A stretch of DNA of 64,000 nucleotides from Syntrophorhabdaceae bacterium (GTDB taxonomy: Bacteria > Desulfobacterota > Syntrophorhabdia > Syntrophorhabdales > Syntrophorhabdaceae). The DNA is taken from assembly GCA_963665295.1 (NCBI GenBank), contig OY762209.1, positions 192,001-256,000 on the forward strand, in the 5' to 3' direction. A program made the translations under genes and the position numbers. Under the pieces are notes generated by a model that saw only the letters and a program-made list of their open reading frames with translations, did not search any database and was not told the origin of the DNA. Positions 980 through 38,567 of this stretch are shown here, in pieces; position 1 is the stretch's first letter; every line of letters starts with the position of its first letter.

Positions 980-3253
980 CTACGTCAAGGGCTGACCCCT
1001 ATGTTCTTTCCTTATGGATTTGAGTATTTCCTGAGTACGCCTCACGCCGTCCTGGTAGTCCGGGGTGCCCGGCAGCACGAGGTCAAGGCGTTGCCAGATG
1101 AGCAAAGCTTCATCATACGCCTCTTCAGCCTCTGTGAGGCTGCCCTGGATGCGGGCTATGTCGCCTACTTTATTGAGGGATATGCTCATGTCGCGGAGGG
1201 CTTCGGGGGTGTCGCCTGTCTTGTCCCTGATGTCGCGAGCAATCTTCAAACTGTCCCGGTAGGCCTCTTCAGCCGCTGTGAGGTTGCCTTGGGCGCGGGC
1301 TATGTCGCCTACGTTGTCGAGAAATACGCTAATGTCGCGGAGGGCTTGGGGGGTGTCGCCTGTCTTGTCCCTGATGTCGCGAGCAATCTTCAAACTCTCC
1401 CGGTAGGCCTCTTCAGCCGCTGTGAGGTTGCCTTGGGCTTGGGCTATGTCGCCTACTTTATTGAGGGATATGCTCATGTCGCGGAGAGCTTCGGGGGTGT
1501 CGCCTGTCTTGTCCCTGATGTCGCGAGCAATCTTCAAACTCTCCCGGTAGGCCTCTTCAGCCGCTGTGAGGTTGCCTTGGGCTTCGGCTATATCGCCTAC
1601 TTTATTGAGGGATACGCTCATGTCGCGGAGGGCTTGGGGGGTGTCGCCTGTCTTGTCCCTGATGTCGCGAGCAATCTTCAAACTCTCCCGGTAGGCCTCT
1701 TCAGCCGCTGTGAGGTTGCCTTGGGCTTCGGCTATATCGCCTACTTTATTGAGGGATACGCTCATGTCGCGGAGGGCTTCAGGGGTATCGCCTGTCTTGT
1801 CTCTGATGTCGCGACGTATGTTCAGACTCTCCCGGTAGGCCTCTTCAGCCGCTGTGAGGTTGCCTTGGGCTTCGGCTATATCGCCTACTTTATTGAGGGA
1901 TACGCTCATGTCGCGGAGGGCTTCGGGGGTGTCGCCTGTCTTATCCCTGATGTCGCGAGCAATCTTCAAACTCTCCCGGTAGGCCTCTTCAGCCTCTGTG
2001 AGGTTGCCCTGGGCACGGGCTATGTCACCTACTCTGTTGAGCGATATGCTCATGTAGCGGAGGGCTTCAGGGGTGTCGCCTGTCTTGTCCCTGATGTCGC
2101 GAGCAATCTTCAAACTCTCCCGGTAGGCCTCTTCAGCCGCTGTGAGGTTGCCTTGGGCTTGGGCTATGTCGCCTACTTTATTGAGGTATACGCTCATGTC
2201 GCGGAGGGCTTGGGGGGTGTCGCCTGTCTTGTCCCTGATGTCGCGAGCAATCTTCAAACTCTCCCGGTAGGCCTCTTCAGCCGCTGTGAGGTTGCCTTGG
2301 GCTTCGGCTATATCGCCTACTTTATTGAGGGATACGCTCATGTCGCGGAGGGCTTCAGGGGTATCGCCTGTCTTGTCTCTGATGTCGCGACGTATGTTCA
2401 GACTCTCCCGGTAGGCATCTTCAGCGGCTGTGAGGTTGCCCTGGGCTTGGGCTATGTAGCCTACTCTGTCGAGGGATATGCTCATGTCGCGGAGTGAACC
2501 ATTGTCTCCTGTTTCCGCAAGAGCTTTTGAGAGGACACGGAGATCTTTTGCGATCTCCTCCGCCAAGGAGAGTCTCCTGAGGCTGAGCGCCGCGTCAAAG
2601 GCCTGAACCCCTGCAATCAGCGCCTCGCGGCCCTTCTGCTTCCTCTTTCTCAGTCGTTCCCATTCTTTGATCCGGCCATCGTAGAATTTCAGGAAAGATG
2701 GGTCCGTTGTATTTATTGGAACGGGAGGGCGTTCATCGGTGCCCGTCGCGGCGTGTTCGTCCTCAATCCCGCCCATGTCGATGCTCAGGTTGCGTATGGA
2801 CCACATATCGGGGGCAAGGTCCCGGACCCGCGCCTGTGAACCTGAGGGAAGGACGAGAATCAACGGCCTTTTTGCGTGGCTCCGCACCAGTTCCCGGTGT
2901 TCATTGAGGCGCATGAGGATGTTGTCCCGCGCCTCCTGCCAGCGGCCTTCCCTGTCATTACTATAGAGTTCGATCCACAGGGGCGCCTGCATATGGTCCA
3001 ATACCCTGTCGGGGTTCCGAAAAAGATCCATTATTACTTCGACAGCGGATTCGGGGGATGAAGGCGTCATGGTCTGCAAGTGGGACATCTTTGCTCTTGC
3101 GAGGTTGGCAAGCCGTTCTCTGAAAACGTCCACAACGCGGTTTGCCGACGAAAAAAGAAAGATAAGGCCAAAGCCCTCCACCCAGTCCACGTGGTAGCGG
3201 AGCTCAAGCCAGGCCTTTTCCCCGTCTGCGGTGAGTCTAGGAGGCGGTGTCAT
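980..3253 (-). CDS. Tetratricopeptide-repeat protein with an N-terminal degenerate NTPase-like domain and ten 48-aa repeats
   Basis: 757-aa ORF. Repeat unit LRDMSISLNKVGDIAQAQGNLTAAEEAYRESLKIARDIRDKTGDTPEA. N-terminal LNEHRE..PLILVLP..APDMWSIR segment. Start overlaps the stop of the upstream ATPase. Confidence 0.85.
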   Translation of the reverse strand: MTPPPRLTADGEKAWLELRYHVDWVEGFGLIFLFSSANRVVDVFRERLANLARAKMSHLQTMTPSSPESAVEVIMDLFRNPDRVLDHMQAPLWIELYSNDREGRWQEARDNILMRLNEHRELVRSHAKRPLILVLPSGSQARVRDLAPDMWSIRNLSIDMGGIEDEHAATGTDERPPVPINTTDPSFLKFYDGRIKEWERLRKRKQKGREALIAGVQAFDAALSLRRLSLAEEIAKDLRVLSKALAETGDNGSLRDMSISLDRVGYIAQAQGNLTAAEDAYRESLNIRRDIRDKTGDTPEALRDMSVSLNKVGDIAEAQGNLTAAEEAYRESLKIARDIRDKTGDTPQALRDMSVYLNKVGDIAQAQGNLTAAEEAYRESLKIARDIRDKTGDTPEALRYMSISLNRVGDIARAQGNLTEAEEAYRESLKIARDIRDKTGDTPEALRDMSVSLNKVGDIAEAQGNLTAAEEAYRESLNIRRDIRDKTGDTPEALRDMSVSLNKVGDIAEAQGNLTAAEEAYRESLKIARDIRDKTGDTPQALRDMSVSLNKVGDIAEAQGNLTAAEEAYRESLKIARDIRDKTGDTPEALRDMSISLNKVGDIAQAQGNLTAAEEAYRESLKIARDIRDKTGDTPQALRDISVFLDNVGDIARAQGNLTAAEEAYRDSLKIARDIRDKTGDTPEALRDMSISLNKVGDIARIQGSLTEAEEAYDEALLIWQRLDLVLPGTPDYQDGVRRTQEILKSIRKEHRGQPLT
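1100..2494. repeat. Intragenic tandem array of ten 144-bp units
   Basis: gct(c/a)atgt(c/a)gcggag recurs at 1184, 1328 ... 2480 with an exact 144-bp period. Confidence 0.95.
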
Positions 3254-4562
3254 CCATGGTTTCCAGTTCGGATTGTATGAGAGGGTGAACGTCGTACCAG
3301 TCGTCGTCGTTTCTATAGTTCAGGACAAGGTGGGTGTCGAAAAACCGGGCAAGACGCGGCAATTCCCTTATTGCTTCCAGGTTCGGGCGTTTGCTGCACG
3401 CGATACCCCGAAGCCACTTCATGTCCTCCCTCGCAATGGGAAGCATATCGCGCCGCATCTGGTTTTCCGCGTCCCTCACGATCTTTTCCGTTACCCGTAG
3501 CTGGTCATCGATAGTGGCCTTTATGAGGCATTCCTTCACCATACGGAAAAAGTCTCTCAGGTCTCCCCCTGTCTTGGCTGCTATATCGTTTATCTGCGCC
3601 TCTGAAAAGAAATCATCCCATTTTTCAAAGCGCTTGCCGATAATGTCGCGCATGATCTCCAGACCCGCCGGATCATCCACGCATTGATTGGTATCAGGAT
3701 CCCTTCTCCTTATATGCACGCTCGGCAGATTGCATACGGTGCCGCCGCCGAGGCGCCGCCCCAGCCCGGGAGTTATAGGGGTAAGGTACGGAGGGATGGT
3801 ATAAACCACGTGAAGCAAGGGGAGATGCAGCTTGTCCGAATGACCGGAAAAAAGGTTCTCCACGCTCTTGTACACGTTCTCCGCATCGGCTCCGACGCCC
3901 TGGATCTGTTCCACGGAATCGACCAGAAGGACCACTTTCTTATCCTCGTCATTCTCCCGCCCCCTTATCGCCTCAACCACGGATGCGGCAAATTTGTGAG
4001 CCTCCTCCGTAAGGCGCGCCACATGCCCCTTGGACTTTTCCTGGAGGAGTCTCCTGAAACTGGGATCATCCTTGAGCGATGCCTTTATGTCGGCCTTGAA
4101 GACGCCAGGGGCGGTTTCAAGTTTGATCTGGTCGATGGAAACCTCCGTCTTCAGAAAATTCCTGAGCCTGTCCCAGTAGCTCTCGTGGGCAGGATCATAG
4201 CCGAACCGGGCGCTGAATTCGTCGCTCAAGGCCCCCATGACGGACACGAAAAAGTCCGATATATCGACGGAGGTGTTCAGGTTCATATAGTCGCGCATAT
4301 CGCACAAGAAAACGATGCAGCCGTTGCCTTCGAGCATCTTTTTCAGTCGCCTGAGCTCGGTGCTCTTGCCGCTGCCGCGCTGACCGGTGAGGAGGTTCAC
4401 GCTTGCCGCGTCACTCCAGTCTATCTTTTGGAAGAGGTTCTTAATCGGGTCGCCCGGGGCCTGTTCGAGGAAGGGCACATAATATTTGTCGCCCGGTTCC
4501 AGGGGCCGGTCGTTCAGGTTATTGTAAAACTGTTTCATGCGGTTCCGGATGTCATTGTCCAT
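3237..4562 (-). CDS. P-loop ATPase (AAA/KAP/STAND-like)
   Basis: Walker A GQRGSGKSTEL, Walker B VLLVDSVEQ, GGDLRDFF, C-terminal LNYRN..WYDVHPLI. ATG 4562 preceded by AAGGGGAAG. Confidence 0.85.
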   Translation of the reverse strand: MDNDIRNRMKQFYNNLNDRPLEPGDKYYVPFLEQAPGDPIKNLFQKIDWSDAASVNLLTGQRGSGKSTELRRLKKMLEGNGCIVFLCDMRDYMNLNTSVDISDFFVSVMGALSDEFSARFGYDPAHESYWDRLRNFLKTEVSIDQIKLETAPGVFKADIKASLKDDPSFRRLLQEKSKGHVARLTEEAHKFAASVVEAIRGRENDEDKKVVLLVDSVEQIQGVGADAENVYKSVENLFSGHSDKLHLPLLHVVYTIPPYLTPITPGLGRRLGGGTVCNLPSVHIRRRDPDTNQCVDDPAGLEIMRDIIGKRFEKWDDFFSEAQINDIAAKTGGDLRDFFRMVKECLIKATIDDQLRVTEKIVRDAENQMRRDMLPIAREDMKWLRGIACSKRPNLEAIRELPRLARFFDTHLVLNYRNDDDWYDVHPLIQSELETMDDTAS

Positions 4563-4677
4563 TATTTCTTCCCCTTTCCGGCAATGCGACACCTGTTCAT
4601 TAATGAAGAATAAAGAATGATCCCACGATTTTCAAGAAGATTATATTCAGAGTGACGGTCGTTGCGTAGTGCCGGGG

Positions 4678-4785: not shown

Positions 4786-5181
4786 TCACCAGAACCGGAG
4801 CGGGATGACCTTTGAAATTGCATTAAAGTCGTTATCATTGTGAAGGAGCATAAGATCGTGCTCCAGGGCGGTCTGCGCGATGAGACAATCGATTGTGCTC
4901 CTCACAGTGATTCCCTTCCTACGGCATTCCATGTAAAGTCTTGCTGCCTCCGCGAAGGAATCAACAGGGTCCTTCAGGTGATAGAAGTGCTGTGAGGACA
5001 AATAGCGTCTGAGAAGGGAGAATTCTCTCTCCGAAGCGGCCCCTTGAAGCACCTCTTGCAGGATAAAGGAGGTTATTCCGAAGGGTATCTTTCGTTCCAG
5101 GATGTCCTGGAGTTTCAGGCCGCCTTCGCTTTTTGAACCCTTCAAGAAGTCAATGAGAACCGAGGTATCGACAAGAATCAT
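4786..5181 (-). CDS. vapC: PIN-domain toxin VapC
   Basis: MILVDTSVLIDF, ILQEVLQG, TIDCLIAQTA, LLHNDNDF: the acidic PIN tetrad is present. Confidence 0.92.
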   Translation of the reverse strand: MILVDTSVLIDFLKGSKSEGGLKLQDILERKIPFGITSFILQEVLQGAASEREFSLLRRYLSSQHFYHLKDPVDSFAEAARLYMECRRKGITVRSTIDCLIAQTALEHDLMLLHNDNDFNAISKVIPLRFW

Positions 5182-5378
5182 CTTCCTTCACGTAGAGCCT
5201 TATAATCGTAGTTCGCGGCAAACTCAACCTTACCTGCAAGGTCAAGCAGGTTGAGACGCTTACGGTTTTCAACGAATTCCTTCAGCGCTTCATGGACAAG
5301 CTCTTTCTTTGTCGTTGCGTTGCTGAGTTTTAAGGCCTCAGCCACCAGGGCATCATCAAGGACTATGTTTGTTCTCAT
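5178..5378 (-). CDS. vapB: VapB-family antitoxin
   Basis: MRTNIVLDDALVAEALKLS..TKKELVHEAL. GGAGG RBS. ATGA overlap with vapC. Confidence 0.9.
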   Translation of the reverse strand: MRTNIVLDDALVAEALKLSNATTKKELVHEALKEFVENRKRLNLLDLAGKVEFAANYDYKALREGR

Positions 5379-5394
5379 TATACACCTCCATGTA

Positions 5395-5429
5395 TGTATA
5401 GCTATACACCCGGAAGGGGAGTCTGTCAA
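5395..5429 (-). promoter_or_regulatory. vapBC promoter (TTGACA-N17-TATAGC) overlapped by the perfect palindrome TGTATAGCTATACA
   Basis: -35 at 5429-5424 and -10 at 5406-5401. The 14-bp palindrome spans 5395-5408. Confidence 0.65.
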
Positions 5430-9920: not shown

Positions 9921-10232
9921 ATGCAGAAAGTATATGTTTCGCTGAAGAAAGACGTCCATTATCACAGGAGTATTCAATCCACGTTGATAGTCGTGTTCTG
10001 CGTGCTGATCTTCATCGTCGCCTCCTTCTACATGAGAAGCTCTTTCAATGACCAGCGAGAGGAACTGATCGACACCCTCCGGAAGGAAAGGGAGGTCTCA
10101 CAACTCAACGGGAAACTGAAAGTCGAACTTTCCGGCATCACCCGGGGAAGGTATATCGAGCTGAAGGCAAAGGAACGGCTTGGACTCAAGAAGCCGAAAG
10201 AGGAAGAGGTCCTCGTACTGACAAATGAATAA
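9921..10232 (+). CDS. ftsL: Cell division protein FtsL-like
   Basis: Follows rsmH. One TM helix, a coiled coil and IELKAKERLGLKKP. Confidence 0.75.
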   Translation: MQKVYVSLKKDVHYHRSIQSTLIVVFCVLIFIVASFYMRSSFNDQREELIDTLRKEREVSQLNGKLKVELSGITRGRYIELKAKERLGLKKPKEEEVLVLTNE

Positions 10233-11268
10233 AAGGGCTAAACAAAGAGCCTTTTTCATCTGCGCGGCAATATGCGTAATGTACATTGCGGTCGGCCTGG
10301 GATTTGCGGATAAACTGAGCATGAAAAGGGTGGCGAGCACGGAAGAAGTGAGCCCGAAAGCCATGAGTCTCGCCATTCCGAAAACGGGTCTGCGCAATGA
10401 CGCCCAGGCGGCGGTAACCGCGGCCCCGGAGCCCGTTGCGCCTCCCGTGGTCGTGACGCCCGCCAACGTTCCCAAGCCCCTTACCCCGCCGCCCGTGGTT
10501 GTGGCGGAGCCCCCTCAACGTCCGGTCCCGCAGCCTGCCCAGGAGGTCAAAAGCCCCGTCCAGGCCAAGGTGGAGCCGGTTCGCGTGAAACCTGAACCGG
10601 TGCGGCTCCCCGTGTCCGCTTTCGTGCGCGAAGGCTCGACTGCGGAGCCTTCCCTTTTCATCTCCTTCCCCATCGTCTGCTACGCGATCAAGGAGGGTTT
10701 GATAGAAAAGGAAGGTTTGATTTTCATAAAGAAAGGGGGCTATAATACTCTCAGTTGGAAGAAGCCCCTCGATATACTGAAGGATAGAGACGAAGAAGGT
10801 CTAAAGAGCATCTCAAAAGCCATCGGAAAAAAACAGATACTCGGTTTTCTCAAAAAAGAGGGGATATCATGTGCGGATGACAGCGGGGCCGAAGATGTCA
10901 TCCTCGGGAAGGGTTACACAGTGGAAAAGAAGAGGCTTCTCGCTCTTTATGATAAGCATGTATCGGCGGATTATCAGAGACATTTCCCCTACTGCCTGGA
11001 GGGGATAAGTGTTTCGAAAGGCAAGACGGGGTTCGAGTTTGCACGGGCCAGGGACACGGGCAGAGAAACAACCGTGAACGACCAGGAATGGATGATGCCC
11101 AACCTTACCAACCTTACCATAAGGGACGCCATTCAAAAACTTTCCGCCAGGACCGCCAAAATAAAGGTCCATGGGAACGGGACCGTAACCGACCAGGAGC
11201 CCAAACCCTTCCAGAAGACCAGCGGAGAAACGGAATGCGTCATTTACGGGAGGGCCAACAAGCAATGA
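10225..11268 (+). CDS. Degenerate FtsI/PBP3-derived protein: TM anchor, Pro-rich linker, eroded transpeptidase remnant, C-terminal PASTA domain
   Basis: Occupies the ftsI slot, only 347 aa. PASTA-like MPNLTNLTIRDAIQKL..HGNGTVTDQEPKP. No SxxK or SxN at the expected positions. Confidence 0.7.
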   Translation: MNKRAKQRAFFICAAICVMYIAVGLGFADKLSMKRVASTEEVSPKAMSLAIPKTGLRNDAQAAVTAAPEPVAPPVVVTPANVPKPLTPPPVVVAEPPQRPVPQPAQEVKSPVQAKVEPVRVKPEPVRLPVSAFVREGSTAEPSLFISFPIVCYAIKEGLIEKEGLIFIKKGGYNTLSWKKPLDILKDRDEEGLKSISKAIGKKQILGFLKKEGISCADDSGAEDVILGKGYTVEKKRLLALYDKHVSADYQRHFPYCLEGISVSKGKTGFEFARARDTGRETTVNDQEWMMPNLTNLTIRDAIQKLSARTAKIKVHGNGTVTDQEPKPFQKTSGETECVIYGRANKQ

Positions 11269-15138: not shown

Positions 15139-16464
15139 ATGGCTTTACCTGACGATATACTGATAGTCGGCCTCGGAAAGACAGGCATTGCCACGGCGAA
15201 ATTCCTCCATGCCATGGGCAGGAGGATTGCGGTCACCGACGCCAAAAACGAAGAGGCCCTCGCGCCCGCGCTGAAGGAGCTTGAAGGCATCCCCTTCAAA
15301 GGCTATTTCGGCGGCCATGGCAGGGACTCCCTCCTATCCTACCCCATGATCGTCATAAGCCCCGGCGTGGACAGCCGTCTGCCCTACCTGAAAGAAGCCC
15401 GGGAAAAGGGTGCCACCGTGATCGGGGAGATGGAACTTGCCGCCCGGTTCGTGGATGAGCCCATAATCGCGGTGACAGGCACAAACGGGAAGACCACCAC
15501 CACAACCCTCCTGGGCGAGATATTCGAAAAGGCATACCCCGGCGTGTTCGTGGGAGGCAACATCGGCAACCCCTTTATCAATTATGCGCGCGAAGGAAGG
15601 AAGGCGCCCTTCGTCATACTCGAAGTAAGCAGTTTCCAGCTCGAGACCATCGACACCTTCCGTCCCCGTACTGCGGTCCTCCTCAACATCACCGAGGACC
15701 ACCTCGACCGTTACGGGAGTTATCAGGAATATATAGACGCAAAATACAGGGTCTTCGAAAACCAGGGTCCCACGGATTACGCGGTACTCAGGAAGGGCCT
15801 CGAGGCTCCGGACAGTGTCCGGGCTGAGCGCCTCTACTTCTCCGTTGACGAGATCCTCGAGGAAGGGGCGTTCCTGAAGGACGGCGTCATGCACGTGAGG
15901 GTAAAAGGGCAGGAGTTCTCCTATGAGAGGTCCCTTTCCCGTCTCGTGGGCGTCCATAATACGGAAAACCTCCTTGTTGCCCTCCTCGTCGCCCATATCC
16001 ACGATATCGGCCGGGACGTCGTAGAGGAGGCAATAGCGGGCTTCAGAGGCCTGGCGCACAGGGTCGAGCCCGTGGGAGAGTTCCGGGGCATGATCTTCTA
16101 CAATGACTCGAAGGCCACGAACGTGGACGCCACGAAAAGGGCCCTCGAAAGCATGGACTCCAAGGTAGTCCTCATCGCAGGAGGAAAAGACAAGGGCGGC
16201 AGTTACAAGGTTATTGCGGACCTCCTGGGAAAGGTCAGGGCCATAGTCCTCTTCGGCGAGGCAAAAGAGAAGATTGCGGGAGAGCTTGCGGGGCTTTCCA
16301 CAATATATATGGAAAAGGACCTGCCCGGGGCTGTTGACAGGGCGATAGGGATCGCGCAAAAGGGCGATGCCGTCCTCTTTTCACCCATGTGCAGCAGTTT
16401 CGACATGTTCCGGGATTACAAGGAACGAGGCAACGCCTTCAGGAGGATAGTGGAATCGTTATGA
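15139..16464 (+). CDS. murD: UDP-MurNAc-L-Ala:D-Glu ligase
   Basis: GLGKTG, VTGTNGKTTT, EVSSFQLE, NDSKATN, SPMCSSFDMF. Confidence 0.96.
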   Translation: MALPDDILIVGLGKTGIATAKFLHAMGRRIAVTDAKNEEALAPALKELEGIPFKGYFGGHGRDSLLSYPMIVISPGVDSRLPYLKEAREKGATVIGEMELAARFVDEPIIAVTGTNGKTTTTTLLGEIFEKAYPGVFVGGNIGNPFINYAREGRKAPFVILEVSSFQLETIDTFRPRTAVLLNITEDHLDRYGSYQEYIDAKYRVFENQGPTDYAVLRKGLEAPDSVRAERLYFSVDEILEEGAFLKDGVMHVRVKGQEFSYERSLSRLVGVHNTENLLVALLVAHIHDIGRDVVEEAIAGFRGLAHRVEPVGEFRGMIFYNDSKATNVDATKRALESMDSKVVLIAGGKDKGGSYKVIADLLGKVRAIVLFGEAKEKIAGELAGLSTIYMEKDLPGAVDRAIGIAQKGDAVLFSPMCSSFDMFRDYKERGNAFRRIVESL

Positions 16465-17246
16465 AAAAGGCCGCTCTCTACGTACTTGCCGCCCTTCTTC
16501 TTTACGGTCTCTTCCGAGAATTCACCCTCGTGAAGGTCCTTCTCATGGCAGGGGGACTCGCCTCGGCATACCTCATCTGCCGCCTGCCGGGACGCTACAT
16601 CCTCGCCGCGAAGTACCCCCTCATACTTCTCTCCCTTCTTGCCACTGCGGCGTTCTTCTTTTATCCGCCGATCCATACGAAACTCCCCATGGAGCCTATC
16701 GTCATATTCCTTTCTTTCTACGGCACCGCCTTCTACCTGATCTCTCTCGGAGAAAACGGCAAGGGTCTCTACAAGGAAGCCATCGCCCTTTCGACCCTCT
16801 TCCTTTCCTCCTGCTTCAACCTCTTTCTCATGGGGAAACCCCTTGTATTCCTCGCCATGGCCATGGCCATAATGCTCTTTCTCTTCATAGTGGGCAGGGT
16901 GCGCCTCATGGCCGTCATCGGGGTCTACACACTGGGCCTCATCGTCTACCTTGTCATGAAGAAGACCGGCCTTTCCGGCGCAGGACTCGCCATAGGCAAT
17001 ACAGACAAATGTCTCCTCCTTGCGGTGACTTTTGTCCTCCTCATGTTCAGCTTCACCGGATTCCTGAGGAAACCCGACTTCATGAAGATACTCGCCTTTT
17101 TCGGCTTCATCTACATTGCCGTCGATCTCCTTCTCGTCCTTGGATTCAAGCTTTCCGGAGGACTTCTCTACCAGCCCGTGATCCTGCTCCTCATCGTCGC
17201 TCCCCTCATGGGGATGATGCTTAAAGAGGAGGGCCGGAGGATATGA
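16461..17246 (+). CDS. Polytopic membrane protein in the ftsW slot; probable strongly reduced FtsW/SEDS derivative
   Basis: 261 aa with about 8-9 hydrophobic segments. ATGA overlaps with murD and murG. Lacks the RW, QPSE and SYGGSS SEDS motifs but keeps GLSGAGL..NTD. Confidence 0.65.
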   Translation: MKKAALYVLAALLLYGLFREFTLVKVLLMAGGLASAYLICRLPGRYILAAKYPLILLSLLATAAFFFYPPIHTKLPMEPIVIFLSFYGTAFYLISLGENGKGLYKEAIALSTLFLSSCFNLFLMGKPLVFLAMAMAIMLFLFIVGRVRLMAVIGVYTLGLIVYLVMKKTGLSGAGLAIGNTDKCLLLAVTFVLLMFSFTGFLRKPDFMKILAFFGFIYIAVDLLLVLGFKLSGGLLYQPVILLLIVAPLMGMMLKEEGRRI

Positions 17247-20551: not shown

Positions 20552-21455
20552 TGATGAGATGAAACAGAAAAACATAGCGGTCCTCCTGGGAGGCAGGTCC
20601 TCAGAGAGGGAAGTGTCGCTCCGAAGCGGCGAAGCGGTGCGTGGCGCCCTCATACGGAAGGGTTACCGCGCGGTGGCCATCGACCCCAAGGAAGACCTGA
20701 TCGACAAGTTGAAGGAAGAACGGATCGACGTGGCCGTTATCGTGCTTCACGGCAAATGGGGCGAAGACGGAACCGTGCAGGGCCTTTTGGAGATCATGGG
20801 CATCCCCTACACGGGCTCGGGCGTACTCGGGTCGTCCGCGGCCATGGACAAGGTAACCATGAAGCTTATCCTCACGGGTATGGGGCTCCCCACACCGGAC
20901 TATGCAGTGGCCATGTCCGGAGAAGAGACCGTGGCCTTTCCCGTACCCTTTGTGGTGAAGCCTGCGAACGAAGGCTCGACCATAGGGATCTCCGTCGTAA
21001 GGGCGGAGCAGGAAAAGAAGGATGCCCTGGAAACGGCGTTCCGGTACGACAGGAAGGTGCTTCTCGAAAAATTCGTGGAAGGGGCGGAAATAACGGTGGC
21101 CGTAGTGAACGGGGTGACGCTGCCTGTCATAGAGGTCCGGCCCGTGAACGGCTTTTACGATTTCAAGGCAAAATATACCAAGGGCATGACCCAGTACATT
21201 GTGCCCGCGCCCCTCGACGAGGCCACGGAAAAAGAGGCCCGCGACACGGCCCTCAAGGTTTACAGGGCCTTCGATCTCGCGGGATGCGCGAGGATCGACA
21301 TGCTCATCGAAAAGGGAGTGCCCATGGTGATAGACATAAACACATCGCCCGGCATGACGGAAACGTCCCTTGTGCCCAAGGCATGGGCACATCTCGGCAG
21401 GACATTTGACGACCTCGTGGAACAGATACTTCTGGGGGCTGCTCTGAAAATATGA
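20544..21455 (+). CDS. ddl: D-Ala-D-Ala ligase
   Basis: GGRSSEREVSL, LHGKWGEDG, KPANEGST, YDFKAKY, DINTSPGMT. Confidence 0.96.
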   Translation: MRSDEMKQKNIAVLLGGRSSEREVSLRSGEAVRGALIRKGYRAVAIDPKEDLIDKLKEERIDVAVIVLHGKWGEDGTVQGLLEIMGIPYTGSGVLGSSAAMDKVTMKLILTGMGLPTPDYAVAMSGEETVAFPVPFVVKPANEGSTIGISVVRAEQEKKDALETAFRYDRKVLLEKFVEGAEITVAVVNGVTLPVIEVRPVNGFYDFKAKYTKGMTQYIVPAPLDEATEKEARDTALKVYRAFDLAGCARIDMLIEKGVPMVIDINTSPGMTETSLVPKAWAHLGRTFDDLVEQILLGAALKI

Positions 21456-22153
21456 AAAAGACCCTTTATTTCTTTTTCCTCATACCTGTGTGCGTCCTTT
21501 CGACCCTTACCCTCATCTATCTCTTCTCGAAGGACGAGCCCCTCTTTTTTTTGAAGAACATTCGAATAAACGGGGTGCAACAGTTGGCGGAAAAGGATAT
21601 AATGAACAAAGTATCTCCCTTCCTGAGGGAGAGCCTCCTCAAGATAGATGCGGTGAAGATGAAGGAAGCCCTTGTATCGCACCCCTTCGTGAAAGAGGTG
21701 AACATCAAGCGCGTGTTTCCTTTCTCCATCGTCATCGACGTGAAGGAGAAGAAACCCTCCGCCCTATGGGTAAATACAGAGGGGACCGTTACCGTCCTCG
21801 ATGAGACCGGCACGCCTTACCGCGGGCTCGCAAAGGGAGACGAAAAAGACATGTTCGTAATCAGCGCCCGCGACAAGGGCGATGCGAAGAGTGTCTACAA
21901 AGAAATAAACGGCTGGATTACGCAGGGAATAATCAAGAAAGATGTCCTTTCCGAGATATCCTACGACGAGGGGAGCATCACTATTTTCGGCTTCGACAAC
22001 GGGGTGGAGATCATCCTCGGGAAAGAAGACCAGGACAAGAGACTGAAAAGGGCGGTTGCGGTCTTCCAGGACGCAAAGAAAAGAGGACTCCTGATAAAGT
22101 GCATAGACGCACGGTTCGAGAAGGGCGCCATAATCCAGGAAAGGAAGGGTTGA
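21452..22153 (+). CDS. ftsQ: Cell division protein FtsQ/DivIB
   Basis: Lies between ddl and ftsA. TM + POTRA (HPFVKEVNIKRVFP..VKEKKP), C-terminal IDARF. Confidence 0.88.
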   Translation: MKKTLYFFFLIPVCVLSTLTLIYLFSKDEPLFFLKNIRINGVQQLAEKDIMNKVSPFLRESLLKIDAVKMKEALVSHPFVKEVNIKRVFPFSIVIDVKEKKPSALWVNTEGTVTVLDETGTPYRGLAKGDEKDMFVISARDKGDAKSVYKEINGWITQGIIKKDVLSEISYDEGSITIFGFDNGVEIILGKEDQDKRLKRAVAVFQDAKKRGLLIKCIDARFEKGAIIQERKG

Positions 22154-22154
22154 T

Positions 22155-23405
22155 ATGATGCGAGAGGACGGACTCCTTGTCGGCCTTGATGTAGGGACCA
22201 CAAAGATATGCGTCGTTGTGGCGAGGCTGGTGGAGGACAAGATCAACATCATAGGCATCGGGTCCTATCCTTCCACGGGATTGAGAAAAGGCGTGGTGGT
22301 CAATATGGACAGCACGGTGAACTCCATTAAGAAAGCCATCGAAGAGGCCGAACTCATGGCGGGCGTCAAGATAGATTCCTGCCTCGCAGGCATCGCGGGC
22401 CCCCACATAAAGAGCTTCAACAGCAACGGCGTGGTGGCGATCAAGGACAGGGAAGTGAGGACCGACGATATCACGAGGGCCATTGACGCGGCCAAGGCCG
22501 TTGCCATACCCGCGGACCGGGAACTGATCCACGTAATCCCCCAGGAATTTATCGTAGACGACCAGGACGGAATATGGGAACCCACCGGCATATCCGGGGT
22601 AAGGCTCGAAGTAAAGGTACATATCGTTACGGGAAGCGTCTCGTCGGCCCAGAATATCATGAAATGCTGCAAACTCGCGGGATTGGGCGTAAACGAGATC
22701 GTCCTCGCCCAGATCGCGTCCGCTGAAGCGACGCTCACGCCGGAAGAGAAGGAGATCGGCGTGGCCCTCGTGGATATCGGCGGCGGCACGAGCGACATTG
22801 CGGTCTTCTCCAACGGGAGCATCAAATACACGTCCGTTTTGCCCTTCGGAGGCAACAACATCACCAACGACATCGCCATCGGGCTCCGCACTCCCCTGGA
22901 GGAAGCGGAAAAGATAAAGAAGAAATACGGATGCGCCTATGCGAGCATGATCGGCGCAAACGAAACGATCGACGTACCGAGCGTGGGGGGCAGGAAACCG
23001 AGGACCCTCATGCGCAAAACCCTCGCGGACATTATAGAGCCGAGGGTGGAAGAAATCGCCTCCCTCATATATGAGGAAATACGAAAATCGGGCTCCGAGA
23101 AACTCCTCGCATCAGGCGTCGTCCTGACCGGGGGATGTGCGAACCTCGAAGGGATGCCCGAGTTTGTGGAAGGCATTTTTAACCTTCCCGCACGAAGGGG
23201 CTACCCTATAGGCGTGGGAGGTCTCGTGGACGTGGTGAACAACCCCATATATGCGACAGGGGTCGGCCTTCTCCTCCACGGTTACAAAAGCGGCAAAGGC
23301 AAAGCAAGGAAGCAGGGCTTCGACCAGGCCAGAGGCATTGCAAAGATGATTTCAGGCGGAAAATTACTCGACAGGATGAGAGATTGGTTTAAAGAAATTT
23401 TCTAG
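22155..23405 (+). CDS. ftsA: Cell division protein FtsA
   Basis: [42 protein letters not shown]. Confidence 0.97.
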
Positions 23406-23415
23406 GAGGTGCACG

Positions 23416-24579
23416 GTGAACAAAGTGTTTTACATGGATGAGGCTAACGGCTTTTCAGCAAAACTGAAAGTAATCGGCGTTGGCGGAGGGGGATGCAACG
23501 CGCTCAACAACATGGTGGAAGCGGGCGTGCAGGGCGTTGAATTCATCGCGGTCAACACGGATGTCAAATCACTCGCCATGTGCAAGGCTCCTGTCAAAAT
23601 TCAGATAGGACAGAAACTTACACGGGGACTTGGGGCGGGAGCTGATCCAGAGATCGGAAAGAAAGCGGCCCTTGAAGACGTCGATAAAATAAAGGATCAT
23701 CTCCAGGGCGCGGATATGGTCTTCATCACCTGCGGCCTGGGCGGCGGTACCGGCACCGGGGCGTCATCCGTTATTGCGGAAATATCCAAAGAACTCGGCG
23801 CACTCACCGTGGCCATCGCAACAAAGCCCTTTGCCTTCGAGGCAAGGGACAGAATGAAACAGGCCGAGCATGGCGTAACCCAGCTCAAGACCCGGGTTGA
23901 CTCCCTCATCACCATCCCGAACCAGAGGCTCCTCTCCATCGGCGGCAAACACATGACCATCATGGAGGCCTTCCTGAGGGCCGACGAGGTGCTCCTCAAC
24001 GCAGTGAGAAGTATATCGGACCTCATTGTCGGGTCAGGCCACGTGGTCGTCGATTTCGCGGATGTGAAGACCATCATGAGCGAAAGGGGCATGGCCATCA
24101 TGGGCGTCGGCATGGCCGCAGGGGAGAACCGGGCCAAGGAAGCGGCACAGAAAGCCATTTCGAGTCCCCTCCTCGAAGATATATCGATCCATGGCGCACG
24201 GGGCGTGCTCATAAACATCACCGGCAACTCCGATATGAAACTCCATGAGGTCCATGAAGCGTCAACCCTCATCCAGGAGCAGGCCCATGAAGACGCGAAG
24301 GTCATATGGGGCCTCGTATTCGACGACACCATGGACGACAACATAAGGATCACCGTCATTGCCACGGGTTTCGAGGAAACCGTCGAGAAGGGCGTGGAAG
24401 AAACGAGGATCGAGCCCTTAAAACGAGGCAGCAGGCTCTTCGATGAGGAAACGGTGCCCACCTTCATGAAGAAGAAAGTGGCCGTTGACTACAAGGAGAT
24501 AAAGGCGAAGAGTGAAAATATCGATATCGATGACGACAGGTACGATGTGCCGACCTTCCTCAGAAAGCAGGCGGACTGA
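23416..24579 (+). CDS. ftsZ: Cell division protein FtsZ (GTG start)
   Basis: [22 protein letters not shown]-terminal [11 protein letters not shown]. Confidence 0.98.
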
Positions 24580-26369: not shown

Positions 26370-27143
26370 CTACCTTGCCGGAGCGGCGCCCGGTTGTGCC
26401 TGGGGCGTTGCCTGCTGTACGGGCTGTGGCGCTCCGGGGGGCGTTACGCCGGGGAAGGCCTGGCGGTTCCTGAGCGACCGGTTCGGTGTGGGCGCAGGAC
26501 CGGTCTGGGGGGCGCCGGGCGTAGCGCTCCAGGCAGGGCCGGGCGGCGTGGTCCGACCGGGGGTCGCTGCGGGGCCACGGGCGGCAGCGACGGGGTGAGC
26601 CGCGCCTTTGGCGGTTTCGGCCCCTCTCCTCTTCCCTTCGTCGGAAAGATGGACGGTCATGACCTCTTCGCCCCTTGTGAGGACTATCTTGTCATTCTCT
26701 ATCTCTTTCAGGACGAAACCGCTCAACACGTCCCCCTTCTTTATTACCTGCTGCCGGTTCCCTCTGCCGGGGGTTGTCTTCGGGGCCTTCTTGTCCTCTA
26801 TGTAGGCAAGGCCGGCTCCGTCGTTGATTATGGTCCCATAGAGCACCAACTCCGGTTTGGGGAGGGCTTTTTCCGCCTTCTTTTCCGGCGGTATCCTCCT
26901 CTCCGGGTGGAAGAGGTTGTTGTCCCCGATCGCGACATAGTCGAGGGGGGACGGCGGGGTCCGTGGAGTCGCCGGGGTGGCCTCGGCGGCGGTCACCGCC
27001 TTCGTCTTTGCGAGGGGCACGGTGAATTTCATCTTCATGCGCACCAGGGGAGCTACGGCAAAGACGAGGGTAGCCGCGATCAGGGCGAGAAGGGTCACGT
27101 TCAGGATGTTCACACTCCCGTAAAGATATCGGATCACGCGCAT
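26370..27143 (-). CDS. T2SS GspC/XpsN-like protein with a Pro-rich tail
   Basis: TM helix, NLFHPER, LVLYGTII..AYIED..KGDVLSGFVLKEIENDKIVL. Last gene of the gsp operon. Confidence 0.65.
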   Translation of the reverse strand: MRVIRYLYGSVNILNVTLLALIAATLVFAVAPLVRMKMKFTVPLAKTKAVTAAEATPATPRTPPSPLDYVAIGDNNLFHPERRIPPEKKAEKALPKPELVLYGTIINDGAGLAYIEDKKAPKTTPGRGNRQQVIKKGDVLSGFVLKEIENDKIVLTRGEEVMTVHLSDEGKRRGAETAKGAAHPVAAARGPAATPGRTTPPGPAWSATPGAPQTGPAPTPNRSLRNRQAFPGVTPPGAPQPVQQATPQAQPGAAPAR

Positions 27144-27144
27144 A

Positions 27145-27699
27145 TTACTTACCGCCCGTAAGGGCCGAAACCCTGAGTTTTACCATGAGGTCCCTCGGTT
27201 CTCTGAAATTTCTCACCCTTGTGTCGAGTTCTTTTATCACAATATAAGGCGTCCTTGTTTCGATGTTGTATAAGATATCGGTCAAGGCCTTCGTGTCGGG
27301 AAGGACCAGATCCATGGTGACGTTCACGATCTTGAACTTTCCCAAGTCCTCCGCCTTCTCGACCCTCTCGCTCGATATGGTCCCTCCCCTGCCCATGATT
27401 ATGGCCTTTACCGTATCGTCCAGGGAGTTCGCCGCGAGAGCGGGCGTGTCTGCGGCAATGATCTTCGACTCCCCTTCCTTTCTCTTTTCCTTCAGCGCCG
27501 CCAGCTTGCTCTCCAGGCCGGGCTTTTCCGCGATGATGGTTACGTATTTCTGGAGGGTTTTCACTTTCGAGGCCTGCATTTCCCTGAGGGCGGCCATTTC
27601 CGTATGAACCCTTTCGTAGCCGTAGTCGTACCCCACGAGGCCGAGAAGCACAATGACCAAGGGCGCTGCGAACCGGATAATCCTACTTCTTTTTGTCAT
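27145..27699 (-). CDS. gspM: T2SS GspM-like protein
   Basis: TM + coiled coil + ferredoxin-like domain (LTDILYNIETRTPYIVIKEL). Operon position fits. Confidence 0.7.
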   Translation of the reverse strand: MTKRSRIIRFAAPLVIVLLGLVGYDYGYERVHTEMAALREMQASKVKTLQKYVTIIAEKPGLESKLAALKEKRKEGESKIIAADTPALAANSLDDTVKAIIMGRGGTISSERVEKAEDLGKFKIVNVTMDLVLPDTKALTDILYNIETRTPYIVIKELDTRVRNFREPRDLMVKLRVSALTGGK

Positions 27700-29251
27700 C
27701 TTTAGCCTTTACCTCCGCTTCCTTGACCGCTTCCTTCACCGGCTCCTTGACCTGGCCCTTTATCTCCATCTTGACTACGAACCTGTCGGCGTTCATCCTC
27801 GTGTCCCTGATGGTGGGAGACATAAACTCCACCTTCCTGAAGTATTTCGTCTGCTCGAGCTTCGGTAAGATCTCCGAAGCGGAGTTTGCATACCCCTCGA
27901 TATCCACCTGCGTCTCCGCGATCCGCGTCCTTGTAAGCCACACGGTCTTCGGCAGGGTTGCGGTAAGCTCCTTGAGCAGGGCGAGCGCCATGTGACGTCC
28001 CTCCTTGAAATCCTCGATAGAGGCGACCTCGGCGCTTAAGGCATCCACCTCTTTTTTCAGAGCCTCCACCTTTCTTACCTCTTCTTTCCGGAGCGATATC
28101 TGCCGGTTGATCTCATTGAGCCTCGCCTCCTCCCTCCGCACAGGAAGGACGGCATAGGGCACCCAGGCCGCAAGGAGGAGAAGGATGAGAACAAAAGTCC
28201 CTGCCCTGGGGACGGTCGCCACGGATCCGTTCCCCTTTCCGAGCAGGTTCAAACCCTTCGCCCTGGACCAGAGCGACTCGAAGGCAGCGCCGATGGCGAC
28301 ATAGGAGATATCCTCCGCGCCGACCGACGGGCCGAGCTTCACATCACCGGGACGGAGCGCCCTCATGGGGCAGTCCATACACCAATCCGCCGGGAGTTCG
28401 CCCTTGTCCTTCATATACACGTAGACTGCCGGCGTAAGACCAAGGCTCCTCGCCAGGTCAAAGACGGGCTCGATCCCGTTCCTGATCACCTCTGTCCTTT
28501 CCGCCGGTCCGATGCCGGAAAAGCTGCCCCCGAAGGCCGAGACCATGGTGTGGCCGTGGATAAACCCTCCTTCATACCCGAAGGAGTCCACTTCCATACA
28601 GATCGAATCCGCAGTGGGGTCTATATAGCTGCAAAACGTCCCAAGACCCGACAGGTTGATGGTCACTCTCTCGATGCCGATACCTTCCTTCTTCAGGGCC
28701 GTGAGGTACTGGTCGATCAGGTCGGCCCGCGCCGCGACAACCACGATGCTCAGTCGTCCGTCCCGTTCGTTCAGCACCTTGAAATCATAGTATGCGCTGT
28801 CCGAACTAAGGGGGGTAAGCCTGTCCAGTTCATAGGCCATCACAGTGCCGAGATCGGCCTTTACCGTGGAAGGCAGCTCCACGGTCCTCACGATAACCCA
28901 GTCTTTGGGAATACTCAGGGTTATCCCCGTCTTCGGCACCTTGAGCTCCTTGATCGCCACGGACAGCGTGCCGGCAAGACTTTCAGGGCTCAAATGCCTG
29001 CCCTCCTCGAAGGCGTATTTCCTGAACTTCACGATCCTCATCCTGGAGAGGAACCTCGTACCCAGGACAACCCATAGAAGGCCCCGCTCGATTGAGACAG
29101 CCACCGATTTCTTCGGCACTATAATGCCGTCCATGAGACTGAAGGACATGAAGCCCGCAAAGGGCCTCCACCATCCCTCCACCTTCCCCGCGAAGCGGCG
29201 CCAGGGAACGGAAAGTCCCGTCAGTTTTTGCAGCACCGCTGTTCCTATCAT
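27683..29251 (-). CDS. gspL: T2SS GspL / PilM-PilN-like protein
   Basis: Actin-like cytoplasmic part (VRTVELP..YELDRLTP..AYYDF), TM helix, PilN domain (LKELTATLPKTVWL..IEGYA). Confidence 0.75.
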   Translation of the reverse strand: MIGTAVLQKLTGLSVPWRRFAGKVEGWWRPFAGFMSFSLMDGIIVPKKSVAVSIERGLLWVVLGTRFLSRMRIVKFRKYAFEEGRHLSPESLAGTLSVAIKELKVPKTGITLSIPKDWVIVRTVELPSTVKADLGTVMAYELDRLTPLSSDSAYYDFKVLNERDGRLSIVVVAARADLIDQYLTALKKEGIGIERVTINLSGLGTFCSYIDPTADSICMEVDSFGYEGGFIHGHTMVSAFGGSFSGIGPAERTEVIRNGIEPVFDLARSLGLTPAVYVYMKDKGELPADWCMDCPMRALRPGDVKLGPSVGAEDISYVAIGAAFESLWSRAKGLNLLGKGNGSVATVPRAGTFVLILLLLAAWVPYAVLPVRREEARLNEINRQISLRKEEVRKVEALKKEVDALSAEVASIEDFKEGRHMALALLKELTATLPKTVWLTRTRIAETQVDIEGYANSASEILPKLEQTKYFRKVEFMSPTIRDTRMNADRFVVKMEIKGQVKEPVKEAVKEAEVKAKDDKKK

Positions 29252-29347
29252 GCTTTCATCCCCGTGTGCCTGCCCTTCGAGGCTTCTTTACCACGGGGGC
29301 CTCTCCTTTTTCCACCTGTCCCATCGTATTCCATATCCTTGTGTCCC

Positions 29348-30340
29348 TCACTGCCACGGTCTCATTCCCGCCGGGCTCTTATAGTATACATAACGGTATT
29401 TTCCATTGCCCTGTATTTCCACCACGGCCTTTACCCGAAGCCCCTGGGCCTGCCCCCCCTTGTATCCCACCGCCTCGATGGCATACATGTTCGATTCGGT
29501 GAGGCCGATATAGGACGACATCTGCTTGAACGCATCCCCCACGGTCTGGTTCACCTTTTCGAGGTCCTTTATCTCCTCCGACCGCCTGAGCGTGATAATC
29601 TGGTCCGCCATCTCAGGCGTCATGCCGGGAAGGGCGGCAAGGACGGCCCTGGGCGCGCTGTTCACATTGATCGCCCCCGTCTTCGAATAGACGGTGAGGA
29701 GCTCGGAGAGACCCGGTGTCTTGCCGTTCCCATACAGTATCTGCGGCGTAATCCCCTTTACGAGCAACAGTTCCTCGATGGTCTCGAATTTGTCGTTCCT
29801 CGCCTTGTAAGGGTTGGGCAAGGACATGTAATAATCACTCTCCGCCCCGTGGGCCTTGTGCAGGTCATCGCCGTCCATCCAGTCAAGGACGGAATCGACG
29901 ATGATGTCCGCCTGTTCCCTGGGCACCCCGAGGTTCACCAGCATATTATTCAATATTATGCCGGAGGTATCGGTCAAGAGGTTCACATTGAGCTTCCCTG
30001 ACTCATCAATTATATCATATATATAATAATCATTCCCCAACCGGCCCCGGTTAGCGGTTCCGTCGACTCTCACGATCTCCGTTCCCTCCAGCGTGCCTGG
30101 CTGGTTCTTGTAGAAACCCCTGTTGAACATCTCCGCAATGCCCCTCGCCACTCCCGCCTCCGCGAGAAACCTCCTTTCGGCGCCTTCCGAGTAGAAGAGG
30201 GCGCTACGGGTTTCCGTTCTCGTCATAAAGGTGAAGGAGAGGACAATGACCATGAGGATCACCACGATCCAGAGCACCATGAGGAGGGCAATGCCCTTAT
30301 CCGATCCGGCAAGAGGGCAGAGCGTGGAGCCCCTTCTCAT
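29348..30340 (-). CDS. gspK: Minor pseudopilin GspK
   Basis: KGIALLMVLW, DESGKLNVN, DWMDGDD..GAESDYY, EELLLVKG, INVNSA. Confidence 0.92.
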   Translation of the reverse strand: MRRGSTLCPLAGSDKGIALLMVLWIVVILMVIVLSFTFMTRTETRSALFYSEGAERRFLAEAGVARGIAEMFNRGFYKNQPGTLEGTEIVRVDGTANRGRLGNDYYIYDIIDESGKLNVNLLTDTSGIILNNMLVNLGVPREQADIIVDSVLDWMDGDDLHKAHGAESDYYMSLPNPYKARNDKFETIEELLLVKGITPQILYGNGKTPGLSELLTVYSKTGAINVNSAPRAVLAALPGMTPEMADQIITLRRSEEIKDLEKVNQTVGDAFKQMSSYIGLTESNMYAIEAVGYKGGQAQGLRVKAVVEIQGNGKYRYVYYKSPAGMRPWQ

Positions 30341-31053
30341 GCCACGCCTCCATGCGGGCGGCCTGCCGGGGTCCCGACTCCGGGCCCCATGGCCGGACGG
30401 AAGGACGGCATTTCCGTGGCTGAGGGGTAGTAACGCGCTTCGGTAAGCGACCCCCGCGCCCGCATGGGTATAATCATGGAGATTTCCTTTCTTCCGCTCA
30501 AGAGCCTGAGCCTTATCTTCTGCGGAACCTTGGCGTCATCGGCCCACTGGTCGACCCATTGACCCTGCTCCTGGGTAGGCTCCTTAAGGAAATACTCGAA
30601 GTATATCTGGTCGAGACCCTTGAGCAGCGTGGTCTTCCGCGCATTCGTGGTCCCCACCATGCCCTCCGAGGCATAAAGGACCATCTTCCCGGACTCATCG
30701 GTCTGAACAGTGTACTCCACTACCACGTACCCCCTTCTTCCTCCCCAGATGGAATAATTGGTGGCCATCTTCATATAATCCCGCCGTCCCTCGAAATAGA
30801 CCCGTTTCGCCGCATCCCGCTCATAGGTGAGGGGTACCGCGGACTGGACCTGGGCGTCAATAATGGAGAGGGACGCCCTGAACCTTTCGAGGCCCTCGAT
30901 CTTCTTCTCCCCGCTCTCCACGGATCTGTACCCGAGCCTCAGGGCGCCCGTGGCCACGAGAATGATGACGGCCACGAGGGTAACGGAAATGAGGAGTTCC
31001 AGGAGCGTGAACCCCTCGCAAGACCCTGCTTTCTGAAATCTCTCACCCTTCAT
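30337..31053 (-). CDS. gspJ: Minor pseudopilin GspJ-like
   Basis: Prepilin motif GFTLLELLI, C-terminal W..PQKIRL, operon order. Confidence 0.75.
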   Translation of the reverse strand: MKGERFQKAGSCEGFTLLELLISVTLVAVIILVATGALRLGYRSVESGEKKIEGLERFRASLSIIDAQVQSAVPLTYERDAAKRVYFEGRRDYMKMATNYSIWGGRRGYVVVEYTVQTDESGKMVLYASEGMVGTTNARKTTLLKGLDQIYFEYFLKEPTQEQGQWVDQWADDAKVPQKIRLRLLSGRKEISMIIPMRARGSLTEARYYPSATEMPSFRPAMGPGVGTPAGRPHGGVA

Positions 31054-31074
31054 GATCAGGTCCGACGCCTCCCG

Positions 31075-31503
31075 CTACACCCTTCTCTCTATCATCTTCA
31101 TGGTCCTTACCGTCAGCCTTCTCGGTTTGGAGTTCTTCATCCAGTGGACTGTCAGGGCGACCTCGAGGAGTTGTACCGGCAGGTCCTTGGTCCTCTCCTG
31201 CAACACCTCGGACACGGCAACGTCCACGCTGTAGCCGTCCGCCGTGGTCTCGGTCCATGTGTTTATGGGCAACGCGTCGTCATCGACGAGTTCCCTCATT
31301 CTCGTTTCGGCCCTCACCGTGGCTGCCACGTAATCCTCCGAAGCCCGCAGCGCCCGGAGGTCCGCGGAGAAGAGCTGAAAGACGATGGTGGCCGCCATAC
31401 CGAGTATGGAAAGGGCCACAAGAACTTCAAGGAGCGTGAATCCCCGATCCCCTCCGTCGATTCTCTTCCCTGTCCTCCACCTGCGCATAATGATGATGCT
31501 CAT
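31075..31503 (-). CDS. gspI: Minor pseudopilin GspI-like
   Basis: RGFTLLEVLVAL, operon order. Confidence 0.75.
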   Translation of the reverse strand: MSIIIMRRWRTGKRIDGGDRGFTLLEVLVALSILGMAATIVFQLFSADLRALRASEDYVAATVRAETRMRELVDDDALPINTWTETTADGYSVDVAVSEVLQERTKDLPVQLLEVALTVHWMKNSKPRRLTVRTMKMIERRV

Positions 31504-31985
31504 TGCCGTATCTTCACCGACCCCATCACCGGGTCCATCTCTATATAGACCGCCTTCTTTTTGTAGGAAAGGACTACCGTCCCCCCTTCCACGCCGCCCG
31601 TGGAATGAAAGAAGATAGGATACTTGCCGTTAAATACCTCACCGTACGCAGGGTCCAGCACCTTGAGGCCTATGTTCGCCGGTATGGGCTTCATGCGGAG
31701 CCCTTCCACCCCGTACTGCCTTGCATCGAGGTCCAGAGTCAGGATCAAGTCTTCTCCGCGGTTCTGAGCGAGAAATCTCATCTGCCTGATGGTGGCGGAT
31801 ATATCGCGCCCCGTGGCGGAGAGCCTCGCGGATGGAAGGCTGGTGGCAAACTGGATTGTGGCCAGCCCGAGAATGAGTCCCGCAAGGAGCATGACGATCA
31901 CCAATTCGAGGAGGGTGAAACCATCCCGTGCCCCGGGAGGGTGTAACCGGCCTTTATGTGCGTCAACCATGGCCGCCTGCCTCAA
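31500..31985 (-). CDS. gspH: Minor pseudopilin GspH-like
   Basis: DGFTLLELVIV, C-terminal IFFHSTGGVEGG. Confidence 0.75.
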   Translation of the reverse strand: MRQAAMVDAHKGRLHPPGARDGFTLLELVIVMLLAGLILGLATIQFATSLPSARLSATGRDISATIRQMRFLAQNRGEDLILTLDLDARQYGVEGLRMKPIPANIGLKVLDPAYGEVFNGKYPIFFHSTGGVEGGTVVLSYKKKAVYIEMDPVMGSVKIRQ

Positions 31986-38423: not shown

Positions 38424-38551
38424 ATACTCCTCCTTTTCATACCATTCCTCAACCGTGACTCCGGCAAAGCCGGAGGTTCGGTGAACCGTGAACCGCTCAA
38501 AGCTGTTGTAACCGTGGGTCACCTGAAGGCCGGGGTTCTGAATGCGGTTAG

Positions 38552-38567
38552 TGCAACAACGGTGCCG
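38552..38567 (-). promoter_or_regulatory. Sigma54 -24/-12 promoter of multicopper oxidase 1
   Basis: CGGCACCGTTGTTGCA against consensus TGGCACGNNNNTTGCW. Confidence 0.65.

Follow-up and report, generated by a model that had tools for sequence, protein, structure and literature searches.

To our knowledge, septum synthesis is seen as depending on FtsW–FtsI activity in nearly all bacteria; C. difficile is the exception that has been studied best. In model organisms the pedestal of FtsI carries the signal that passes from FtsL to FtsI and on to FtsW. In E. coli, the FtsW loop that joins helices 7 and 8 (ECL4) holds the putative catalytic residue D297 and contacts this pedestal (PMC8765783), a contact described as relaying activation from FtsN through FtsQLB (PMC8765783; bioRxiv 10.1101/2021.01.21.427617). 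A class A penicillin-binding protein (PBP) is reported to be the septal synthase in C. difficile (PMC10693644), and the PASTA region of S. aureus PBP1 is reported to bind peptidoglycan and to support the DivIB/FtsW interaction (PMC9426605). In the Desulfobulbaceae, ftsW and ftsN are given as absent (PMC7873302), and a 2025 survey describes Thermotogae and Deinococci without FtsI, as well as pedestal-less PBPs with a recognisable transpeptidase domain (PMC12516126). The main text of that survey gives no match for 'syntroph' or 'desulfobacter', and its supplementary tables might list these taxa.

Here we describe two reduced genes, referred to as X and Y, that occupy the ftsI and ftsW slots of the dcw cluster of division and wall genes in a 64,000-nt stretch of DNA from a Syntrophorhabdaceae bacterium; this whole stretch is termed the window below. 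Our literature search found no description of a reduced FtsI–FtsW pair, and the conserved variant of the pair described here is real and apparently unpublished. A first-pass annotation, made from the sequence, had recognised X as a derivative of FtsI; it missed the matching remnant in the ftsW slot and the absence of a canonical FtsWI from the order.

Results

Gene order and sequence support

The dcw cluster is complete and runs mraZ, rsmH, ftsL, X, murE, murF, mraY, murD, Y, murG, murC, murB, ddl, ftsQ, ftsA, ftsZ, where mraZ, rsmH, murF, mraY, murC and murB are what we take these genes to be from their sequences. The relevant features are as follows.

9921..10232, +, ftsL (Pfam DivIC, E 6e-6; FtsL, E 0.0015; position in the cluster)
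10225..11268, +, X, 347 aa, predicted miniature FtsI pseudoenzyme (slot, fold, profile alignment)
10249..10308, +, X, single N-terminal transmembrane helix, about residues 9–28 (hydrophobic stretch; modelled helix 3–24, high pLDDT)
10330..10626, +, X, linker of low complexity (Pro/Val/Ala/Glu) that replaces the pedestal and the first transpeptidase strands (pLDDT about 48–65, without regular structure)
10627..11061, +, X, predicted transpeptidase remnant, about residues 135–279, mostly the helical subdomain of FtsI (VIA; HMM match to FtsI 284–448)
11080..11262, +, X, single PASTA domain of FtsI type (Pfam PF03793, E 1.1e-5; HMM–HMM; VIA Z about 9)
16461..17246, +, Y, 261 aa, predicted miniature FtsW pseudoenzyme, membrane core only (slot, structural match, motif counts)
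21452..24579, +, ftsQ, ftsA and ftsZ, all intact (Pfam POTRA_1/FtsQ, FtsA, Tubulin/FtsZ_C)

The X frame overlaps the end of ftsL, at its stop, by 8 nt and runs into murE through an ATGA overlap. The order ftsL–X–murE was found at 30/30 loci fetched (the best-scoring 30 of 82), plus 3/3 from families f2 and f3, and the order murD–Y–murG at 30/30 of the loci fetched. Contigs from four sequencing runs in two studies carried X with 0 substitutions and 0 indels, one of these runs possibly being the source of the window itself. No RNA data set carrying the sequence was listed. Pfam applied to the window identified only PASTA in X and gave no match for Y. Both ftsB and ftsK are also present in the source genome. 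Homologues were labelled Syntrophorhabdus, Syntrophorhabdaceae and Syntrophorhabdales, among other metagenome-assembled genome labels, and the order was therefore taken as Syntrophorhabdales.

Elsewhere in the window, an AAA/STAND-like ATPase gene followed by one for a 757-aa protein in which a 40-aa TPR repeat recurs about ten times almost unchanged (980–4592, −) possibly forms a conflict or signalling module, and a small gene pair at 4786–5429 (−) presumably encodes a VapB/VapC-type antitoxin and a PIN-domain protein, which it resembles. Just downstream of ftsZ and a radical SAM gene lies a type II secretion-like cluster (26370–34701, −; GspC, M, L/PilN, K, J, F, E). Multicopper-oxidase-like proteins, unexpected in a presumed anaerobe, are encoded twice, at 35001–38816 (−) and 59526–61727 (+); both are large, and one contains FG-GAP repeats.

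X as a derivative of FtsI

The AlphaFold2 model of X, built from 139 sequences (mean pLDDT 81), starts with a membrane helix, continues through a linker of low confidence into a domain modelled confidently at about residues 131–279, and ends with a PASTA domain. Comparison of the core with known structures, for which the first-pass annotation had called, revealed a penicillin-binding fold: Foldseek with the X model placed PBP2x at the top (E 4.6e-5), and residues 131–279 matched class B PBPs in VIA at Z 9.9–11.1, with 146–150 residues aligned at an rmsd of about 3 (best match: Z 11.1, rmsd 2.9, 146 aligned). Residues 286–346 matched PASTA domains at a Z of about 9. Class D beta-lactamases tied with class B PBPs in Z (about 10–11, with 140–150 aligned across the two groups), and the modelled fold by itself identifies the superfamily without separating FtsI from a class D beta-lactamase. 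A class D beta-lactamase or BlaR sensor domain was considered for X and rejected because, although the fold scores tie, the SxxK, SxV/N and KTG motifs are absent.

The assignment of X to FtsI draws on the synteny of the slot, HMM–HMM comparison with FtsI of the phylum and the outgroup matches of the X profile. Against 19 FtsI from other orders of the phylum, X was aligned at a probability of 97% (E 1.1e-10); its PASTA domain matched that of the phylum's FtsI at 98% (E 1.6e-13), and its N-terminus matched the FtsI N-terminus weakly (E 0.007). Outside the order, every match of the X profile involved just its C-terminal (PASTA) end; these matches came from 55/194 genomes and lay nearly always in frames of 560–830 aa, which is the size of FtsI. 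The core on its own gave a modest match to FtsI (136 columns, E 0.001, probability 21%). It scored 32.2, where 25 column shuffles reached no more than 19.5 and reversal gave 13.3; this match begins at the EPGSTFK helix, runs up to the hairpin that follows the GQG motif and ends before the KTG strand at 490. PASTA was found in 45/49 members of the X family. There was no Pfam match to PBP_dimer (PF03717) in X, searches of PDB sequences with the X sequence and profile and with the Y profile returned nothing useful, and transpeptidase-like clusters in the ESM Atlas (0.89–0.90) were taken as a lead only. On this evidence X very probably descends from the lineage's own FtsI and is a dead remnant of it.

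The first-pass annotation had regarded X as a catalytically dead FtsI derivative that had lost SxxK and SxN and kept PASTA. Its by-eye registers were reproduced by HMM–HMM alignment, which pairs EPSLFIS with EPGSTFK, DILKDRDEEG with EVIKYSSNIG and ILGKGY with VSFGQGI. The column of the catalytic Ser is L144 in X and holds Ser in 2/139 homologues, that of the catalytic Lys is S147 with Lys in 0/138, and SxxK in that helix is absent across the 139 homologues. At the SxN site X has R188-D189-E190 and the family K/R-D-E; Ser occupies the first position in 1/139 homologues, and Asn is outside the six commonest residues at its column. Outgroup FtsI, by comparison, have SxxK in 19/19, SSN in 19/19 and KTG in 18/19. 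The loss of both motifs is thus borne out across the family, the Pfam match agrees with the retention of PASTA, and position, fold, profile alignment and the disappearance of the catalytic Ser and Lys throughout the family together support the view of X as a dead derivative of FtsI. The annotation had also called for a check for any serine in the predicted active site: X has Leu at the Ser column, and the shifted residues S143 and S147 nearby, neither with a Lys at +3.

Two details of that annotation need revision. It had taken GKTG (266–269) for the KTG motif, yet K[TS]G occurs at this hairpin (256–274) in 7/139 homologues, the KTG lysine falls on A275 in one HMM register while the other reads the segment as an earlier hairpin, and a member of family f3 (G004) is without the whole hairpin. 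Sliding a hairpin profile along FtsI singled out no single register, and on the PBP chain the VIA structural ranges continue past the core HMM match. From the alignments, we read GKTG as a turn and the KTG strand of X as missing or unrecognisable. The second detail is the proline-rich tether said to replace the pedestal. Replacement of the pedestal stands, and residues 55–129 of X are indeed Pro-rich, but this is no trait of the family: Pro has a family median of 12% in the linker, compared with 21% in X of the window, and the linker (positions 36–140) varies from 16 to 135 aa, with a median of 57, in the 137/139 rows scored. Given this variable length, the Pro-rich tether is best seen as X's version of a variable spacer. 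X would act like FtsI's non-catalytic portion, but as it fails on the pedestal, SxxK, SxN and KTG, it would be an FtsI-derived pseudoenzyme and not a PBP.

Y as a miniature FtsW

The model of Y, from a 58-sequence alignment (pLDDT 83), has as its top structural match in VIA the FtsW of the P. aeruginosa divisome (8bh1_A; Z 20.0, rmsd 3.4, 255 aligned), followed by RodA (Z 17.2 and 16.4), WaaL (10.9) and the next unrelated row (10.6). With Foldseek, seven RodA/FtsW chains ranked first, none below E 0.001. HMM–HMM comparison with 20 FtsW was weak (E 0.003 for the N-terminal 170 aa, E 0.29 for the C-terminal part), so the identity of Y rests on fold and slot. The RW, QPSE, QPD and SxGG motifs of the ECL2/3/5 active-site loops, found in 19/20 outgroup FtsW, occur in 0/58 Y sequences. 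ECL4 is 13–16 aa long in Y as against about 67 aa in FtsW (17/20 measurable) and has no conserved Asp; a [TN]DF string, counted irrespective of position, is present in 4/58 Y sequences. Prediction of a complex between Y and residues 1–45 of X gave a score of 0.10 and a mark of 0.32, values that we count neither for nor against a contact. With the pedestal lost from X and ECL4 lost from Y, both halves of the activation interface are deleted.

Distribution, selection and the remaining wall machinery

Among 83 genomes of the order, each of at least 85% completeness, X was found in 82 and Y in 82, both being absent from G007. Median pairwise dN/dS, calculated for the 30 loci from unsaturated pairs only, which are not independent of one another, was 0.22 for the X core (63/435 pairs), 0.20 for X PASTA (72 pairs) and 0.31 for Y (86 pairs), compared with 0.13 for murE (33 pairs), 0.13 for murG (56 pairs) and 0.14 for rsmH (30/406 pairs). 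No pair reached a dN/dS of 1 or more. These ratios indicate purifying selection on both genes, and because they lie above those of the neighbours, constraint is somewhat relaxed.

One SEDS match was found in 73/83 genomes of the order and one PBP_dimer match in 78/83; the two were adjacent by their coordinates in 79/83, and the pair was confirmed as PBP2–RodA at 10/10 loci fetched. Extra SEDS matches in ten genomes comprised a long divergent copy in five, RodA-like duplicates in two, split frames in two and a fragment in one. There is a short SEDS fragment in G069, and extra PBP_dimer matches occur in G055, G073 and G074. At least two SEDS loci were present in 48/58 genomes from other orders of the phylum. 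By these domain counts, RodA–PBP2 is essentially the one SEDS–class B PBP pair in the genomes of the order, which have no canonical substitute FtsWI.

A second SEDS–class B PBP pair of the source genome, at 4.72 Mb, which includes its long divergent SEDS copy, was rejected as an order-wide replacement, a second long divergent SEDS being found in 5/83 genomes only. This locus (G000:C1:4717055-4729995) encodes a SEDS protein and a class B PBP that has SxxK and KTG and gives no PBP_dimer match, together with proteins that read from their sequences as FHA-like, PP2C-like, Ser/Thr kinase-like and Slt/LysM-like. Loci of this type are patchy in the order, and presumably resemble the actinobacterial pstP–rodA–pbpA–pkn cluster. 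L,D-transpeptidases were likewise rejected as an order-wide replacement, since they were found in 54/58 genomes but in 0/3 of family f3.

The GT51 domain (class A PBP glycosyltransferase) was found in 83/83 genomes of the order, one of which has a single copy; the source genome encodes four class A PBPs, with SxxK and KTG kept, and a class A PBP of about 620–690 aa is conserved. SPOR domains were detected in 20/83 genomes of the order versus 58/58 from other orders, and Pfam gave no SPOR (FtsN-type) match in the closed genome of the source, a search that a divergent FtsN could escape. Of the 23 SPOR matches in the order, seven share a frame with a YkuD domain, and the SPOR proteins of family f4 are about 280–325 aa long. 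YkuD L,D-transpeptidase lipoproteins fused to a C-terminal SPOR domain, present in some members of the order (L139, L141–L144; for example G051:C23:68956-69831), are possible septum-targeted 3-3 cross-linkers.

Discussion

The explanation that we favour, and consider probable as a whole without being assured, is that X and Y form a non-catalytic FtsWI scaffold and that a class A PBP builds the septum. X has shed its pedestal together with the catalytic half of the transpeptidase domain and retains its anchor in the membrane, the helical subdomain and PASTA. FtsW has been reduced alongside it to the membrane core, with ECL4 and the remaining active-site loops missing. Comparison shows that neither active site and neither side of the pedestal–ECL4 interface is left. 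Most likely X and Y still come together with FtsQ-L-B, FtsA and FtsZ; PASTA in the head of X, which sits on a flexible linker, would bind peptidoglycan and/or FtsQ, and the head would help to keep the actual septal synthase in place at midcell. For X, our best inference is that it serves as a scaffold or binds peptidoglycan. By analogy with C. difficile, the synthase that builds the septum in the order is most likely a class A PBP. Several points count against this explanation: the pedestal that should carry the signal is gone from X, dN/dS is higher in X and Y than in the neighbouring genes, the core HMM match is modest and the fold fits class D beta-lactamases equally well, and the link between class A PBPs and X or Y is co-occurrence alone, in a class of proteins that is common anyway. 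Moreover, C. difficile is an imperfect model, as its vegetative division has no need for FtsQLB. We give an even chance to the fuller proposition that the order-wide double pseudoenzyme, a minimal FtsW–FtsI, is an essential scaffold that couples the FtsZ–FtsA–FtsQLB ring to a different septal synthase, most members also being without SPOR/FtsN-type proteins.

RodA–PBP2 is the main rival to a class A PBP as the synthase. The same dead scaffold would then serve a RodA–PBP2 pair recruited to the division ring, and this pair is the sole SEDS–class B PBP pair seen across the order; Shrestha et al. also allow for septal cross-linking by PBP2 in C. difficile (PMC10693644). However, the pair sits in an ordinary mreBCD operon in the source genome, and the one experimental precedent that we found uses a class A PBP. 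We regard this alternative as unlikely.

It is more doubtful still that X and Y have ceased to be a divisome pair and have been repurposed outside septal synthesis, for instance to sense peptidoglycan, to regulate a hydrolase or, as a membrane protein, to handle lipid II. Such a change of role would accord with the new, near-invariant residues K179-K180-P181 in the X core, with the divergence of Y beyond the reach of Pfam or PDB sequence profiles and with the deletion of the activation interface. Against it, both genes keep their exact dcw slots with overlapping frames and are retained together in 82/83 genomes, and ftsL, ftsB, ftsQ, ftsA, ftsK and ftsZ all remain.

Cryptic acyl transfer or beta-lactam binding by X, through the shifted S143 or S147, we consider very improbable. 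The fold is retained, and Ser is found at 143 in 93/139 homologues and at 147 in 65/138, but neither residue is conserved or accompanied by the necessary Lys, the SxN site reads K/R-D-E, the KTG strand is unrecognisable and members of families f3 and f2 are without even the EPS motif. That X and Y are decaying pseudogenes or assembly artefacts, as split or stop-containing frames in a few drafts (X in G072 and G080; Y in G010 and G068) might suggest, is scarcely credible and already contradicted by open frames in nearly all of the 82 genomes, from four families, by dN/dS values of 0.2–0.3 and by the lack of variants in the four runs.

In the non-catalytic scaffold that we favour, selection on both genes across four families after the loss of catalysis would mean that the scaffold role has been separated from the enzyme role. 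If the fuller proposition of an essential scaffold is true, the pair offers a natural dissection of which parts of FtsWI are structural and not catalytic. Under the scaffold model, one would expect a septal synthase of a non-standard kind in this diderm lineage, in which FtsQLB and FtsA are retained, and PBP3-directed beta-lactams would find no FtsI target in organisms of this order.

Compared with FtsI/PBP3, in particular its PASTA-bearing forms (S. pneumoniae PBP2x, S. aureus PBP1 and the FtsI of the phylum), X shares the slot, the anchor, the helical part of the transpeptidase domain and PASTA. It differs in being without the pedestal, SxxK, SxN and KTG, in having about 145 of about 300 transpeptidase residues and in being about half as long. 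Y shares the murD–murG slot and the SEDS membrane fold with FtsW (PF01098; 8bh1_A), but at 261 aa versus about 369 it lacks ECL4 and its catalytic Asp as well as the RW/QPSE loop, QPD and SxGG, and is invisible to Pfam. The order is like C. difficile, as described for its divisome, in that vegetative division has no canonical active FtsWI to draw on and that a class A PBP is available (PMC10693644). In contrast to C. difficile, which is described as keeping active SpoVE/SpoVD for sporulation and as needing neither FtsQLB nor FtsA (PMC10693644), the order keeps dead remnants together with FtsQLB and FtsA, and is a non-Firmicute lineage. The Desulfobulbaceae and other lineages with a motif-less FtsI belong to the same phylum and, like the order, have lost an active FtsWI. 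In five genomes of the phylum outside the order that have a single SEDS gene (L160–L164: G133, G096, G093, G107 and G109), murD abuts murG in 5/5, and FtsI, of 324–656 aa, is without EPGSTFK and keeps the start of the pedestal in 5/5. These genomes are the mirror image of the order: they keep the start of the pedestal and have no ftsW, whereas the order has lost the pedestal and kept a reduced FtsW. Taken together, the two arrangements suggest that FtsWI catalysis has been abandoned in at least two different ways.
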